From: Nitrosopumilus sp.
GTDB taxonomy: Archaea; Thermoproteota; Nitrososphaeria; Nitrososphaerales; Nitrosopumilaceae
DNA: 64,000 nt
Assembly: GCA_965207445.1 (NCBI GenBank)
Contig: CBDBLX010000002.1
Coordinates: 1,207,849 to 1,271,848 of the forward strand
Direction: 5' to 3'
Below, one piece after another: positions 14,264 through 29,730 of this stretch (the stretch's first letter is position 1; every line of letters begins with the position of its first letter). The translations under genes and the position numbers were made by a program. The notes beneath the pieces are model-generated. The model did no database searches and was not told the origin of the DNA. It worked only from the letters and a program-made list of their open reading frames with translations.

Positions 14264-14412
14264 GTGTGAACCGAGATCTTTGGACATAATAATGAAACCA
14301 TATACTTGTATTTGGTCACATTCCTGCCTGCATATTGAGTACCGTACATGCGATACATTTGGCTAGAAGTTATTTTTGAATGATCATATAAGTCATGGAG
14401 GTTGGTTCACAC
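14264..14412 (+). mobile_element. MITE-B (149 bp), non-autonomous relative of IS66 56967-58806
   Basis: Ends gtgtgaacc / aggttggttcacac; 8-bp TSD caaaaatc at 14256-14263 and 14413-14420. Confidence 0.88.
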
Positions 14413-14462
14413 CAAAAATCTAATAGCTATGTGTCATTTGAGTTTACAAGAGAACTGGTGAC

Positions 14463-14543
14463 GTAACCGTTCAACCCCCATATCTGCACCAGATATTAGG
14501 CGGCGAATATGTGCCTAAATTTGGGAAGAGGTTGAACGGTTAC
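14463..14543 (-). mobile_element. MITE-A copy (81 bp)
   Basis: Perfect TIR gtaaccgttcaacc / ggttgaacggttac. Confidence 0.88.
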
Positions 14544-14590
14544 GAATAGTACATCTATAGATTTTTATAGTATGTTGGAGTCGCAGTTGT

Positions 14591-16556
14591 ATGAATATTT
14601 CATTAACTAGACATCTACGCGTCAAGCAGATCTCTGATCCCTCTCAATCTCCAATCCCCCCCCCCCCCCCATCATTCTAACGCGCAACACCGCCTTTTTA
14701 CAATAATAACCCCTCTTTTACTTGCCGGAATTATAATCACAATAGTTGCAGCCGTTCCGGCGGCTGACTGGGCCAGCGCCGGCCACGGTTATGCAGTCCC
14801 ACCAATCCCCGACGACCTGAACAGGGCGTCCGTCACGTTCACCTCGCCCTCGGGCGGCGATCCTATCAGGGGGACCATAACACTCGAGCGCAATGCCGCC
14901 AAGCAGATGAAGTTCGCGGCCGAAATACGCGAGTGTATAGTGGACCTGGGCAACGTCGGCAATATCCCTCTCCGGTCGGCTAACATGTGCGGCAACGACG
15001 CGCACGCCAGCCTGGACCCCAACGACGCGGGGCGCGACTTTTCGCGCAACGTAATCTGGACGGACTCCAACAAGAACACCGTAGCATACTACTATATCCC
15101 GACGTACAAGACGATAACCATAGAGAAGGGCGAACAGCAAGCTCACGTCACGTGGCAGACGCACAACGACGGCACGTCGAACGTGCAGTCGTTCACGGTG
15201 GCGGTCACGCCCCTCTACGAGGGCCCCGTGTACGGACACCACTGGGTGGATCCGGACAGGCCGCCGGCCGGGACGTTCATGTCCCAGCACCACTGGAAGG
15301 CGCAGATAAACGCCCAGCCGGAGCTGATAATGGTGGCAGACAGCCCCACCGACGTCACGGAGGGCGGTGAACTGCGCGTAGTGGTGCGCGCCACCCCGAC
15401 GGCGGACCCGGAGATTACGTTCAACTACCGCGTCACCGAACACAACAGCAACATTGTCCACAACAACAATGAGGGCGACAAGAGCGACCAACAAGTCGGC
15501 GGCGAACGAGGCGTACGCATCCTGACCCAAAACGACAACCAGGATGAGATCGACGGCACCGTCACGATAACGCTGCTCCCCGGCACCGGCTACACCGTGG
15601 GCACGCCTAATACAGTCACATTCACGGTGCGGGACAACGACCCAGGCCCATTGGGTAGTGGTGGCAACAGCCCTCCGACCCCGACTACAGTCTCAATTGG
15701 GCTGGCAGGCGGCAGCTCGGAGGGCGACCCCGTCTCATTTAGCATCGGCGCTTCCCCCCCGCCCCTGTTGCCTTTGCCAGTCAACGTCACCCTTTCGGGC
15801 GCCGGGAACGTGCTCAACGCATCTGATGTGGGCTGGCGCATCGTGGAGATCCCGCCGATCGGCTCGTATACATTGGAGGTTCCGACCATAAACGACGGCG
15901 TCATAGACGCCAACAATGTTACGCTCACGATAAACCCAGGCGCCGGCTACACGCTGGGACAATTTGCAAGCTGGACTGTGGACGTCCAGGACGCCGGGAC
16001 GACGTCAAGCCTGATGCAGCCGCCCGTGTACGACAAGCTCACCCAGGCGCAGAATCTGACGACAGTCGCCATAGACCCAGCGCTGGTCGCCAACGTGACC
16101 GCGATGGCGTCCCAGGTGCAGCACGGCGCAGACCATGTGGACAGGTGGAACCGCGTTCTAGCTGCCTTTGGCGAGATTGACCACTCAAACCCGATGACCG
16201 CAGCAGAGGCACAAACCAATGCAGAAAAGTACAGCAGCCCACTATGGCCGCAGATTGTCGACGTGTTGACATTGCTAGAGGCGGCGGCAGTAGTAGAACA
16301 GGACGATCCGCAGACGCCGCCTGACACGCCGCCTGCCATAGACCCTGCTCTGATCAACAGCGTCAGGGAGCTGGCGGCACAGACGCAGCACGGCGACGCG
16401 CACGTGGACAGGTGGAACCGCGTTCTAGCTGCCTTTGGTGAGATTGACCACTCAAACCCGATGACCGCAGCAGAGGCACAAACCAATGCAGAAAAGTACA
16501 GCAGCCCGCTGTGGCCGCAGATTGCAAAAGTACTAACGCAGCTTGAGTCAAGGTAA
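14591..16556 (+). CDS. Secreted Calx-beta/Ig-like protein with tandem C-terminal repeats; start out of frame at the C15 tract (candidate phase-variable)
   Basis: Main ORF 14907-16556 extends upstream without an ATG through the signal peptide RLFTIITPLLLAGIIITIVAAV to the poly-C tract; ATG 14591 is in frame with C14 or C17; GC-rich. Confidence 0.75.
14656..14670 (+). repeat. Poly-C tract (15 C)
   Basis: Read directly from the sequence. Confidence 0.95.
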
Positions 16557-21427: not shown

Positions 21428-21508
21428 GCAACCGTTCAACCCTCATACCTGCATCAGAAATTAGACGGTGAATCTGTGCCTAAATTTGAGGAGGGGTTGA
21501 ACGGTTAC
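21428..21508 (-). mobile_element. MITE-A copy (81 bp) truncating the protease gene
   Basis: gcaaccgttcaacc...ggttgaacggttac. Confidence 0.88.
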
Positions 21509-22110
21509 CAGAGCAGGGCCGTATTGGCTCAGGATCGGCATCCACGCCTCTAATTTCTTTGGATCTTGGGATTCCCTTTTGGCAAGGTCAAACTGGTCAA
21601 TGATGGACTGCGCGGGAACCATCTGCCTGCCCAGCTGGGTCTGGAGGACAAACTGTGGATCGATCGGCCCTATCGACGAATGCTTCCCCATCACTATCGT
21701 GTTTGCAGAGCATGCGATCATGGTCGCAGCAGACATTGCAGCCTGGGGAATAATTACGCGTATATCGTTGAATTTGGTCCGCATGTATGTAACTAACGCC
21801 TCTGCGGCCTCGATGGAGCCACCACCCCCCCCCCCCCCCCGGACTGTGAAGGATCAGGTCCAGACTCTCGCCTTTTAGCCCGTGAATCACTTCCATCAAC
21901 CCCTGTATGTCCTCGTCTGTTATGGAAAGGACCTCCGGAGTGCCGATCGGTTTCCCAGTCTGGGTCCAAGCTGTGGCGTAAAGAATTGTGTTTCTACTTG
22001 TCAGCGAAAACAGCTGGGCTAGGTATTGTCTTCTGACCTCATCAAATGGAACTGGATTAGCCTTGGACTTTGTCTGCAGTTCGGATAAGATTTTCCCCCC
22101 AAGTCGGCAT
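21509..22110 (-). pseudogene. SDH-family ClpP-fold serine protease, frameshifted and truncated
   Basis: MPTWGE...LDLILHSPGG...EAAEALVTYMRTKF...PQAAMSAATMIACSANTIVMGKHSSIGPIDPQ; frameshifts near codon 6 and at the G16 tract; cut by MITE-A. Confidence 0.88.
21825..21840 (-). repeat. Poly-G tract (16) in the HSPGG motif
   Basis: 16 C on the + strand. Confidence 0.95.
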
Positions 22111-22745: not shown

Positions 22746-24023
22746 TCAGGCAGAGGCACGTATGGATGCGTTTTGAATGAACGTTATCCAAGCATCACAA
22801 CTATCTGCAAGATCAGAGTCTTTTACTGGTATAATGTCAATTCCAATTGCCTTGGCAGGCGTCATGTTGTTTTTGAGGCTTGTGTGTTTTCTAAAAAAGT
22901 TATGATATACTATGATCAGACGTAAGAGTCCGGGGTCCTCTGATTTTAGTCCACATACACACTTGAGTCTATCCTCAAATTCTCCATTGAGTCGTTCGTA
23001 GACGTTATTTTGATTAAAAAGATTCTGTATGTGTATATCACGTATGTGTACAAACATCGATCCAGCCCGTCTAAAGAATACTTTTCTGGCAGGCTTTATG
23101 AACTCCTGCAGTCCATCACTTACAAGTATGCGGGGTAGCCTACGCGTACGGGCAGCAGCCATTTGAAACAGGTTAGTGGGATCAGATCCCTTTTTCTTCT
23201 TGAGGATCTCGTGGGATAAAACAAATCGGCTTGCGCCATCAATCACACCAAACAAATATCTGGTCTGTTTACGTATTTTAAATTCTAGTTCGTCGACATG
23301 CCACTGAAACCATGCATCAAGACACAACAAACTTGAGAACCGTAGCATGATTCGCGAATACTCATCAGTCCACCTATGTATTGTAGATGGGTTTATGATG
23401 ATCTCATCCATTGCAAGCTGCACACATACTTCTTCTGGAGACATTTTAGTTGCCATCATGGACAACGCTTTTGCTATTACGGATGCATCAAAATGCCGCC
23501 CCTTGAACCCTTCCATTCCAGAAAATGTACGTCCACATTTTTTGCACATGTATCGCCTCACAGATCTTTTTCTCTTACACTTGCGCTCTCCCCATCCTAC
23601 CACATCTTTGGATCTGCATTTTGGATACTGACATCTCAATTTTTTGCGCCTAATCTGTATCCTTTTTCTACGCCCACACCACCACTCTTTGTCTAAGAGC
23701 TTGTATACCCCCACCACATGCTTGCATATCTTTTTTCCATTTTGATTGGCCTCACACTGACATCTCATTCCAAGTGAACTAAGAGACACCACATACAATA
23801 GACCTTGCACAGTTTGCGATGCGACTGTCCATTTAATCGAGCTTAGTGTAGTTATGGCACCTGCAATGCATGCAATCTGAATGCCTGCTTTCCTAATTGC
23901 ATCAATCTGAGCCTTGGAGCGCCTCTGCTTGCCAGGCTTTGGGCTGTCATTTTCCAATGTTTTTGATCTTGATTGAGTAGTTTCGTCTACCACCTTTTCT
24001 TCCTGAACTGTTTTTTGTTTCAT
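22746..24023 (-). CDS. IS6-family DDE transposase with SWIM and Zn-ribbon domains
   Basis: CQC...CKH (SWIM), C-x4-C...CKKC ribbon, WHVDE, LVSDG, NNVYERLNG; likely start MKQK at 24023. Confidence 0.88.
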   Translation of the reverse strand: MKQKTVQEEKVVDETTQSRSKTLENDSPKPGKQRRSKAQIDAIRKAGIQIACIAGAITTLSSIKWTVASQTVQGLLYVVSLSSLGMRCQCEANQNGKKICKHVVGVYKLLDKEWWCGRRKRIQIRRKKLRCQYPKCRSKDVVGWGERKCKRKRSVRRYMCKKCGRTFSGMEGFKGRHFDASVIAKALSMMATKMSPEEVCVQLAMDEIIINPSTIHRWTDEYSRIMLRFSSLLCLDAWFQWHVDELEFKIRKQTRYLFGVIDGASRFVLSHEILKKKKGSDPTNLFQMAAARTRRLPRILVSDGLQEFIKPARKVFFRRAGSMFVHIRDIHIQNLFNQNNVYERLNGEFEDRLKCVCGLKSEDPGLLRLIIVYHNFFRKHTSLKNNMTPAKAIGIDIIPVKDSDLADSCDAWITFIQNASIRASA

Positions 24024-24110
24024 TGTACATATATCACCAATTGGATATATAAGCATTCGTGCGTAATCCGATGTCAGAGACGTTATAACGTTGTACTGAG
24101 AACAACAAAC

Positions 24111-24284
24111 ATGACTAAATGGGCTGCCAATGCCACTGAATTCCAAGTATCCATAACCCACAACGTGAAAAGAGGTACCAGTTACTCGTACATTCCAAAG
24201 CCAGTCCTTGCCAAACTTGGTAACCCAGAGGGTTTGAAGTTTATCATACGTGGCGACAAAATACTAGTTACGTGTCCGGATTGA
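24111..24284 (+). CDS. Small AbrB/MazE-like DNA-binding protein within the IS6 element
   Basis: 57 aa; ...SYSYIPKPVLAKLGNPEGLKFII; divergent from the transposase. Confidence 0.7.
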   Translation: MTKWAANATEFQVSITHNVKRGTSYSYIPKPVLAKLGNPEGLKFIIRGDKILVTCPD

Positions 24285-26890: not shown

Positions 26891-29730
26891 ATGATTATTA
26901 CGCGCCACCCACTCAACTGTATACACTCACTCGGGGGGGGGGGGGGGGGGGCAGGCAGGCAGGCAGTAATAGATCACGCACCAAACGTCGCGTTTTATTA
27001 CCTATCATACTAGCCATACTAACAGTAACAGCAATCTCACTTTTACCATCTGATCAGCAAGCCTACGCCCAGACAATAGTTGCAGTGCCTGCTGACTGGG
27101 ATTATACACCCAATGGCCTGGCAGCCGGGGACACGTTCAGACTACTGTTCTCACCATCCGAGGGCCATTCATTTACGGATACAAAGATACAGGACCTGAT
27201 TGAATCATCCAACATCTTTACGTACGGCAAGTCGACGTACTATCGTATAACCGATGATCCTACTGTTGAGTGTTATGGCTATTATGGCCAGATGGTCGGC
27301 TCAGATGTCTATTGGGATATTGTTAAAAGGAACAATAACGGTGAGGGAACTGACATAAATCGAAACGGCGTGGATTATTGTTATCATATGTATAAACGGA
27401 CGGTAAACGTTGCAAACTCAGAGCCCTCTGCGATGCGCGAGTTCTCAGAGTATTTTCGTGTACTGCATTTCGGTCACTCTGATCGCGACAGCGTCAGGAG
27501 TAACACTTACACTCAAGAAGGAGTAGACGTACCGATATACTGGCTTGGTAGCAATAGCAAGATAGCTGACAACTATAATGACTTTTACGCAGGAGACACA
27601 CCTGGCGAGTCAAGTGAAAGCCGCAACGAGCACGGCAAGTATACGCAGGCCGTTAGATACTCTTATGGCATATCTCCAATATTCAGAGTCACCGCGGAGG
27701 ATGTGCCTGCTTATGTCATACCGACTGTTACACTATCTCCATCCCGGGCTCTGGAGCAGATTGAGGGTGGACAGACTAGAACTTACATACATCTATCTAA
27801 TCCCTCACCCGTTGATATAACGGTTAGAGCTTTTGCTGTTGACTCTGGTGACTTTGTAATGTCAGTGTTTAGGCCTCATCTAAGCCCTGCTGTTTTCGAG
27901 AATTCACTTAATGCCGGTGATGTGCGAGGTAATAGAATGCAACTTATCACAGATGATGACAATGTCCATGAACCAGACGGCACTATAACGTACACTCTAC
28001 TTCCCGGGGATGGTTACATCGTAGGTGAGCCGTCGACTGTCACATTTACCATTCGAGACAACGACCCGGACCCCAACCCACCTCCACCTCCACCACCACC
28101 TCCTCCCTGCACCACAGACAAACCATGCGTCACACTGGACACATCTGGCTCTTATTTTGAGGGCCGCAAGGTGTCGATACCCATACACGTGGACCCACCG
28201 CACATCTCAGGTACTGCGCTGCAAGTAATGTTCGAGACTAGAGACAGTGGCCATATACTTGAAGCATCCGACAATACGATGCACATATTCGGTGTGCACG
28301 GCAGAGTCGACTACTTTCAGTCTGAGACGGTAAGGGATTGCAACCCCTCTGGTCAGAATTGGATAGAGTTTAGACTAAAACCCAGTAAAGACTACCAGAT
28401 ACGAGACGGCGATGAAAACTGGCAGAGGATGACACTGATTGAACACAAACCGCACCCTGACGGCCCCGTCTTGTGGCTTGACAAGAGCGTCATTGATAGC
28501 CAACTACCAGTGACAGAGGGCGACACAGTCGACCTTACTGGACTGATCAAATCAGAGTACTTGGCTTGTTCTGACATCCGTCCCGTATTACACCTGTCCG
28601 TCAATGGAGGCGTTTCGACTGATACTTCATTTACTGTTGCCCATAGCAGTGAAGCACTGATTGCACAGGGCAAAAATCAGAATCCCAGCGCCGACATCGT
28701 CACAAAGAGCAACAGCAACGACGACAACCCTGCTGGCTCCATCACAATTACACTGCAATCGGGCACCGGCTACCAGGTCGGCTCTGCAAACACCGTGACG
28801 ATCTCAGTGGCAGACAGCCCCCATGTCAATAACTCCCCGCCACCACCACCCGAGGTATCAATTGGTATATCAGGCGGTGGTTCAGAGGGTGACCACGTCT
28901 CCTTTGGCATCAACGCGTCCCCCGCACCCCAGTCTCCTTTGCCAGTCAACGTCACCCTTTCGGGCGCCGGCGGGATTCTGAACGCCTCTGATGTGGGCTG
29001 GCGCATCGTGGAGATTCCACCGATCGGCTCGTATACGCTGGAGGTCCCGACCATAGATGACGGCGTCAAAGACGTCAACAATGTTACACTCACGATAAAC
29101 CCCGGCGCCGGCTACACGCTGGGACAATTTACAAGCTGGACTGTGGACGTCCAGGACGCCGGGACGACGTCAAGTCTGATGCAGCCGCCGCCCGTGTACA
29201 ACAAACTCACACAGGCGCAGAATCTGACGGTAGTCGCCATAGACCCAGCGCTGGTCGCCAACGTGACTGCGATGGCCAACCAGACGCAGCACGGCGACGC
29301 GCATGTGGAGAGGTGGAACCGTGTACTGGCCGCGTTTGGGTACACCACGCACGACAACCCGACGACTGCAGCAGAGGCCCGCGACAACGCCGAGAAATAC
29401 AGTAGTCCGCTGTGGCCCCTGATTGCCGACGTGCTGACATTACTAGAGGCAGCAGCAGAACAAGACGGGCCGCAGACGCCACCGGACGTACCGACTGAGC
29501 CAGACGTGCCGCCTGCCATAGACCCTGCGCTGATCAACAGCGTCAGGGAGCTGGCGGCCCAGACACAGCACGGCGATGCGCACGTGGACAGATGGAACCG
29601 CGTCCTAGCTGCCTTTGGTGAGATTACCCATGACAACCCGATGACCGCAGCAGAGGCCCGCACCAACGCCGAGAAATACAGTAGCCCACTATGGCCGCAG
29701 ATTGCAGACGCGCTAGCGGCGCGCGAATAG
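26891..29730 (+). CDS. Secreted Calx-beta/Ig-like protein, paralog of 14591-16556; start out of frame at the G19 tract (candidate phase-variable)
   Basis: ORF 27085-29730 extends upstream without an ATG through the signal peptide RTKRRVLLPIILAILTVTAISLLPSDQQAYA to the poly-G tract; ATG 26891 is in frame with G17 or G20. Confidence 0.78.
26933..26951 (+). repeat. Poly-G tract (19 G) followed by (gcag)x4
   Basis: Read directly from the sequence. Confidence 0.95.

Follow-up and report, generated by a model that had tools for sequence, protein, structure and literature searches.

A C15 tract ahead of a signal segment as a candidate phase-variable switch in a multi-copy protein family of an ammonia-oxidising archaeon

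Introduction

Phase variation is regarded as a means by which bacteria hedge their bets, and the slippage switch is known from host-adapted bacteria and hardly described in archaea. The term has been defined by three criteria, namely a single-locus genetic switch, reversibility and rate, and passages of the 2025 review that sets these out name archaeal distributions as a future expansion (PMC11868660). In Neisseria gonorrhoeae, according to passages of PMC13017665, pilC1 and pilC2 carry a poly-G tract in the signal-peptide coding region. On a genome scale, the main phase-variable modules of Neisseria are surface proteins, restriction-modification systems and glycosyltransferases, as described in parts of PMC5953494. 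From a statistical treatment of short A/T runs, 5' homopolymers have also been proposed as a general prokaryotic switch, archaea included (passages of PMC2831843). A literature search confined to main texts, largely outside the subscription journals, did not turn up any paper describing phase variation by repeats in archaea, and the passages of PMC13076061 contain no archaeal case.

Here we analyse a C15 tract in a 64,000-nt stretch of DNA from Nitrosopumilus sp. (hereafter the window; assembly GCA_965207445.1, contig CBDBLX010000002.1, 1,207,849 to 1,271,848, forward strand), whose archaeal origin, assumed in the initial annotation of the locus, is borne out by the amoA of an ammonia-oxidising archaeon in the same genome. 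As far as the pilC passages go, the locus has in common with pilC a long 5' G/C homopolymer in a secreted adhesin-type gene with more than one paralogue, the length of which sets the frame. It differs in being archaeal, in its TATA promoter and in its roughly ten paralogues with C or G runs within different leaders; moreover, switching is proven for pilC, whereas the window locus is known from sequence alone. Homology to PilC/PilY1 is indicated neither by a Pfam match nor among the Foldseek matches listed. Compared with the Neisseria phasome as portrayed in parts of PMC5953494, the genome has runs that reach the poly-G/C cut-off (>=9) in the same classes of gene, namely those for multi-copy surface proteins, restriction-modification and glycosyltransferases, and its 39 runs of nine or more stand against averages of 15-19 in Neisseria pathogens and N. 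lactamica; however, many runs here are intergenic or lie in repeat-element ends, and the comparison concerns a single genome, read in silico. In contrast to the pooled A/T statistic in the passages of PMC2831843, the present case concerns G/C runs of 9-19 in one gene family with ON and OFF alleles.

Results

The initial annotation had proposed that a C15 tract between the start codon and the signal peptide of a secreted protein is a candidate phase-variable switch. We located the tract at 14656..14670 of the window (plus strand), between start codon and signal segment, and all coordinates of that proposal hold. The gene is preceded by a TATA-like box, TTTTTATA (14562..14569, plus strand), the first T of which lies 29 nt before the ATG at 14591 and which ends 21 nt upstream of it. 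The frame opened by this ATG encodes MNISLTRHLRVKQISDPSQSPIPPPPPSF through the C run and stops at the TAA 14678-14680, yielding a 29-aa out-of-frame product (14591..14680, plus strand), such that the gene is OFF as assembled. The main frame comprises 649 open codons between the TAA at 14604-14606 and the stop whose last base is 16556. The first ATG in this frame, at 14907, lies downstream of the hydrophobic segment, and the frame contains no ATG, GTG or TTG ahead of that segment. One base fewer (C14) would give a protein of 654 aa and two more (C17) one of 655 aa, in agreement with the ON lengths originally put forward. The choice of ATG 14591 as start was also sound: it is the real start codon, since C2:2151424, a paralogue sharing promoter and leader, reads in frame. 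In addition, its distance from the TATA box falls at the genome-wide peak of TATA-word-to-ATG distances (27-31 nt, centred on 29, for 1081 long ORFs), which fits nearly leaderless transcripts and implies that the transcript of the window gene is probably leaderless or nearly so. The C15 run exceeds the cut-off for hypermutable poly-G/C tracts (at least nine, PMC5953494), and the dependence of the frame on its length constitutes, in silico, a single-locus genetic switch as defined in PMC11868660.

The open frame beyond the run encodes a putative exported multidomain protein. A signal-peptide-like hydrophobic segment followed by a small-residue cleavage-like motif (14694..14780, plus strand) is reached only with the leader in frame; its best 19-residue Kyte-Doolittle mean is 2.56, all later windows staying at or below 1.4, and we call it signal-peptide-like on the basis of hydropathy and of a helix modelled in an in-frame paralogue. 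In the model of an in-frame paralogue (P0002; mean pLDDT 61, pTM 0.29), an N-terminal helix is followed by three beta-rich domains and two helical repeats. Mapped onto the window gene (plus strand, limits approximate), these would be an N-terminal all-beta domain predicted with moderate confidence and matching no Pfam family (14781..15318), two Ig-like beta-sandwich domains separated by a Pro/Gly linker, which resemble Calx-beta domains in Foldseek comparisons and the first of which differs among paralogues (15319..15999), and two copies of an unnamed helical repeat of about 75 aa with the stop codon (16068..16556). The top Foldseek matches were the calcium-binding domains of NCX1/CALX and other Ig-like folds, with whole-model TM-scores of at most 0.17. 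The window protein itself has no Pfam match above cut-off and no PF03160 (Calx-beta) match at E<=0.01 or 0.05; it thus differs from Calx-beta proteins, although its middle domains are predicted to be alike in fold and distant homologues carry the family. A search with the helical repeat (16068-16553) recovered 525 protein clusters at a threshold of E<=0.001, and among the 14 such clusters that were scanned eight have Calx-beta (PF03160), two FN3 and Ig-like domains, and four nothing. Many of the repeat-bearing cluster proteins are large, with Calx-beta, FN3, subtilase or RTX domains. The repeat matches no named family, with ESM Atlas scores of 0.81 at most, and is a candidate surface-anchoring or export domain. 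Taken together, the hydrophobic N-terminal segment and the predicted Ig-like and helical domains are in line with the secreted nature originally assigned to the protein, which is likely an exported adhesin-like or surface-layer accessory protein.

The C-terminal repeat is common to 12 genes in this genome. In ten of them the coding sequence between ATG and signal peptide includes a G/C run of 9-19 (four C and six G on the coding strand; four in frame, six out). The four C-type paralogues share TATA box (29-30 nt before the ATG in each), ATG, run and signal segment, with runs of C15 (window), C9, C15 and C12 at the same place; their distances from ATG to anchor are 88, 91, 96 and 104 nt (phases 1, 1, 0 and 2), with C2:2151424 in frame and the other three out, in both phases. 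The six G runs lie within leaders whose first residues are MIITRH/MITTRH (G19 out, G14 in, G11 in), MILSRD (G13 in), MKIITS (G12 out) or MIQGSL (G17 out). A second family member with a different leader lies in the window itself (26891..29730, plus strand) and is out of frame, its G19 run occupying 26933-26951. The eleventh gene (L073, G000:C2:863332-874560) carries G12 some 40 nt upstream of its ATG, and the twelfth has no run while its counterpart in genome G412 has one. L073 comprises 3743 codons with beta-propeller, FN3 and Ig-like domains and ends in a whole copy of the family body. Annotation truncates family genes, the OFF copies P0003, P0005, P0007 and P0050 being called without signal peptides.

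The initial annotation had also called for a test of whether runs are enriched at the 5' ends of signal-peptide genes, and a run near the 5' end is indeed found in 11/12 family genes versus 5/836 other frames of 300 or more codons; the corresponding Fisher P of 1e-20 overstates the effect, paralogues being kin, and some five distinct coding leaders are the fairer count. All six OFF copies retain 627-930 open codons beyond the run. Over well-aligned codons, dN/dS is 0.17-0.38 in 16/16 paralogue pairs, including 0.38 in the single ON-ON pair and 0.26-0.37 in the comparisons of the window gene with the three paralogues nearest to it, values that exchange between copies could blur. Judged by open frames and dN/dS, the downstream gene is thus kept functional in OFF copies.

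Similar variation is present in other assemblies, where in-frame proteins vary at the run by whole codons (SPPPP-HPL, SPPPPLTHPL and SPPPPTLTHPL; four or five Gly; APPPL vs APPPPL), forming the length-variant groups P0001, P0002 and P0052; P0046, P0048, P0049 and P0067; P0004 and P0056; and P0021 and P0060. A counterpart with the MIQGS leader is among the in-frame proteins, on a 2.3-Mb contig of another assembly. Further proteins from these assemblies are called from internal Mets, like the OFF copies of the window genome, and such calls, made on protein rather than DNA, suggest OFF states there as well. Across the family, the repeat domain occurs in 5 of 400 other genomes, from three genera, and 395 of all 401 are without it; a JGI metagenome scan yielded no relative and 60 drawn relatives no match. 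In the five other genomes, 16/18 related genes have a 5' G/C run of nine or more and two have none, a count that leaves out two contig-end fragments of G412 (C110, C30). Run counts for G412 as a whole are unreliable, given its very long runs at contig ends. Six of these 16 runs are coding: one leaves its gene in frame, four put it out of frame, and one is interrupted by an assembly gap. The other ten precede the start codon. L068 has only 62 open codons after its run, and in L058 a Met after the run could bypass it. At the ten upstream-run loci a TATA-like word, chosen with eye-guided patterns after looking, is separated from the start codon by 27-30 nt at nine loci and by 33 nt at the tenth. 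This tenth locus is the C13 member of two 4.93-kb duplicates in G143, which have 0 mismatches and differ solely by 4 nt at the run (C13/C9), the C9 twin having a distance of 29 nt.

The strain is contained in four sequencing runs of one sample, represented by contigs, which drop rare variants. X2, X3 and X4 each contain one contig that extends across the leader of the C2:2151424 type, the in-frame paralogue; an assignment to the C2:397247 paralogue was ruled out, the differences matching the former. The X2 and X3 contigs are 8 bases longer than the window, as in the assembly, and the X4 contig is 7 longer, a weak hint at a run one base shorter, given that stutter would look identical in these gap counts. 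A set of four runs labelled sponge metagenome has small shares and gives no evidence of habitat. Overall, run-length variation is seen among paralogues, duplicates and other assemblies, and the tract at 14656-14670, spanned by none of the contigs listed, is known from one assembly.

The genome (2.61 Mb, 2 contigs, 39.6% G+C, 96.4% complete, 5.5% contamination) belongs to what we infer to be a host-associated organism; the single relative that bears a name is a Thaumarchaeota MAG. The G/C runs of the genome are bimodal in length: six-base runs number 178 and seven-base runs 22, only 3 have exactly eight bases, and 39 have at least nine, 34 of these at least eleven. There are 6 A/T runs of eleven or more in a genome of 60% A+T. 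Since composition predicts about 0.04 G/C runs of 11+ per base type, the 34 observed are not due to chance. At least one run of this length is present in 122 of 401 family genomes and none in 279, in a tally that includes three unpublished genomes (G263, G137, G285) and in which some runs may have been lost or created by assembly fragmentation. MutS, MutL and NucS_N were not found in the ~96%-complete genome, which has a weak NucS_C match below the family cut-off; archaeal PolB and PolD slip on a hairpin template in vitro, according to passages of PMC4134008. Many of the 39 runs of nine or more have no long frame alongside, and 10/39 adjoin sequence words resembling the termini of an 83-bp repeated element; 4/203 such repeat-end words are followed by 14 or more C. 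Contig C1 (121 kb) matches the first ~120 kb of C2 at 98-100% identity and is probably a second haplotype, and at one repeat-end site C1 has C20 and C2 has C24. Runs therefore lengthen and vary here without any switch, and some of them are neutral: slippage occurs, yet a long run alone proves no function. The window contains a copy of the 83-bp element just upstream of the promoter (14462-14544); it has terminal inverted repeats and occurs at 159 loci, 133 of them nearly complete. Direct repeats flank some of the copies, which makes the element MITE-like, and several long C runs have their seed in the C run inside it. A 149-bp element with terminal inverted repeats (14264-14412) occurs at 110 loci (83 near full length) and has flanking direct repeats at several of them, and a DDE transposase (IS240/rve-like) is encoded on the minus strand at 22746-24161.

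Runs also occur in other gene classes. A DNA methylase gene (L069, G000:C2:985039) has C12 after eight codons, in frame, and a restriction-helicase-methylase gene (L070, G000:C2:1302281) is split by G15, out of frame; the two may possibly represent phase-variable restriction-modification in an archaeon. A family-2 glycosyltransferase gene has G10, in frame, and G16 lies at the 5' end of a second gene of glycosyltransferase-like type. Within the window, G16 on the coding strand (21825-21840) breaks the frame of an SDH-type ClpP-like protease gene (about 21461-21899, minus strand) at its LHSPGG motif, placing it out of frame. In addition, G20 lies ~25 nt upstream of an AAA ATPase open frame (L074, G000:C2:612633; AAA is its sole Pfam match), the product of which resembles a clamp-loader large subunit. 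The tetranucleotide arrays (TGGC)20, (CAAG)8 and (GAGT)12 at G000:C2:1754544, 1774393 and 2045050 are further candidate switches.

Discussion

Our analysis supports the window locus as a candidate phase-variable switch, and we consider it probable that it undergoes slippage-driven phase variation as part of a multi-locus archaeal system; the switching itself is something we infer. The gene would be transcribed from its TATA promoter as a nearly leaderless mRNA, and translation from ATG 14591 would cross the C run ahead of the signal peptide. During replication in living cells, slipped-strand mispairing would presumably gain and lose C's and do so reversibly, such that one length in three fuses the leader to the 649-codon frame and yields a protein of ~654 aa that is exported and probably surface-displayed, while the remaining two lengths, including C15 as assembled, give a short dead peptide and an OFF state. 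With about ten paralogues of varied N-terminal and middle domains switching independently, a population may come to hold, and perhaps benefit from, mixed sets of surface proteins. We favour this reading because of the placement of the run, which is found in 11/12 family genes as against about 2 in 100 seeds, and because of the preserved OFF copies.

It is unlikely, in our view, that the runs merely reflect neutral slippage and one-way loss, that is, growth from any seed under weak mismatch repair, with Pro/Gly-coding leaders as the seeds and the out-of-frame redundant paralogues as young pseudogenes. Such growth is consistent with the presence of long runs at the ends of repeat elements and between genes, with C20 versus C24 at one repeat-end site in the two haplotypes, with the failure to find MutS or MutL and with the runs of 11+ in 122/401 family genomes. 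However, 4/203 repeat-end words are expanded compared to 11/12 family genes, the runs occupy the same functional place within unrelated leaders, as C or as G, in three genera, and the OFF copies are free of nonsense changes and have the same dN/dS as ON copies. That C15 is a homopolymer miscall and the true allele in frame and stable seems improbable, even though C15 is known only from the assembly, a two-contig one probably built from long reads, and assembly homopolymer lengths can be wrong. Frameshift-like signatures elsewhere are rare (2/85 A/T runs of eight, 0/7 A/T runs of nine or more and 6/63 G/C runs of six, at least 3 of these last 6 automated calls being false positives that look intact on the other strand), and the X2 and X3 contigs agree with the assembled length of the in-frame paralogue (+8 relative to the window). 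Furthermore, an error would alter the state of one copy, leaving the presence of a run in 11/12 genes unexplained.

Recoding, in which transcriptional slippage or ribosomal frameshifting on the run draws some full-length protein out of a fixed out-of-frame allele and so tunes expression level with no heritable switch, would likewise leave intact, conserved downstream frames. We regard it as a shade more improbable still: the four C-type copies share no fixed phase (88, 91, 96 and 104 nt), 4/10 copies need no shift, and run length and base vary. Ten related genes in which the run lies upstream of the start codon lend some substance to the idea that translation starts downstream of the run, from a near-cognate codon or from ATG 14907, with the run in an untranslated leader or uORF. 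For the window gene this is very unlikely, since the stretch from the run to the hydrophobic segment contains no ATG, GTG or TTG, ATG 14591 has the peak TATA distance and opens an in-frame reading both in the paralogue and in other assemblies, and a start at ATG 14907 would skip the signal segment.

Returning to slippage-driven phase variation, we tentatively suggest, as a possibility that we rate well below our main reading, that two switch designs act on one surface-protein family and form a full phasome in a subset of ammonia-oxidising archaea. One design would consist of frameshift runs between ATG and signal peptide, the other of spacer runs between TATA box and start codon. Because these mRNAs appear to be nearly leaderless (TATA-to-ATG peak of 29 nt), a shorter spacer run would shift the transcription start past the AUG and a longer one would add a leader. 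If true, the spacer switch would rely on archaeal promoter geometry and have no direct bacterial counterpart. A multi-locus archaeal case involving the gene classes that switch in bacterial pathogens would demonstrate that the strategy has emerged in more than one domain and, if true, would name the surface proteins of these archaea that are under fluctuating selection, by host or virus.
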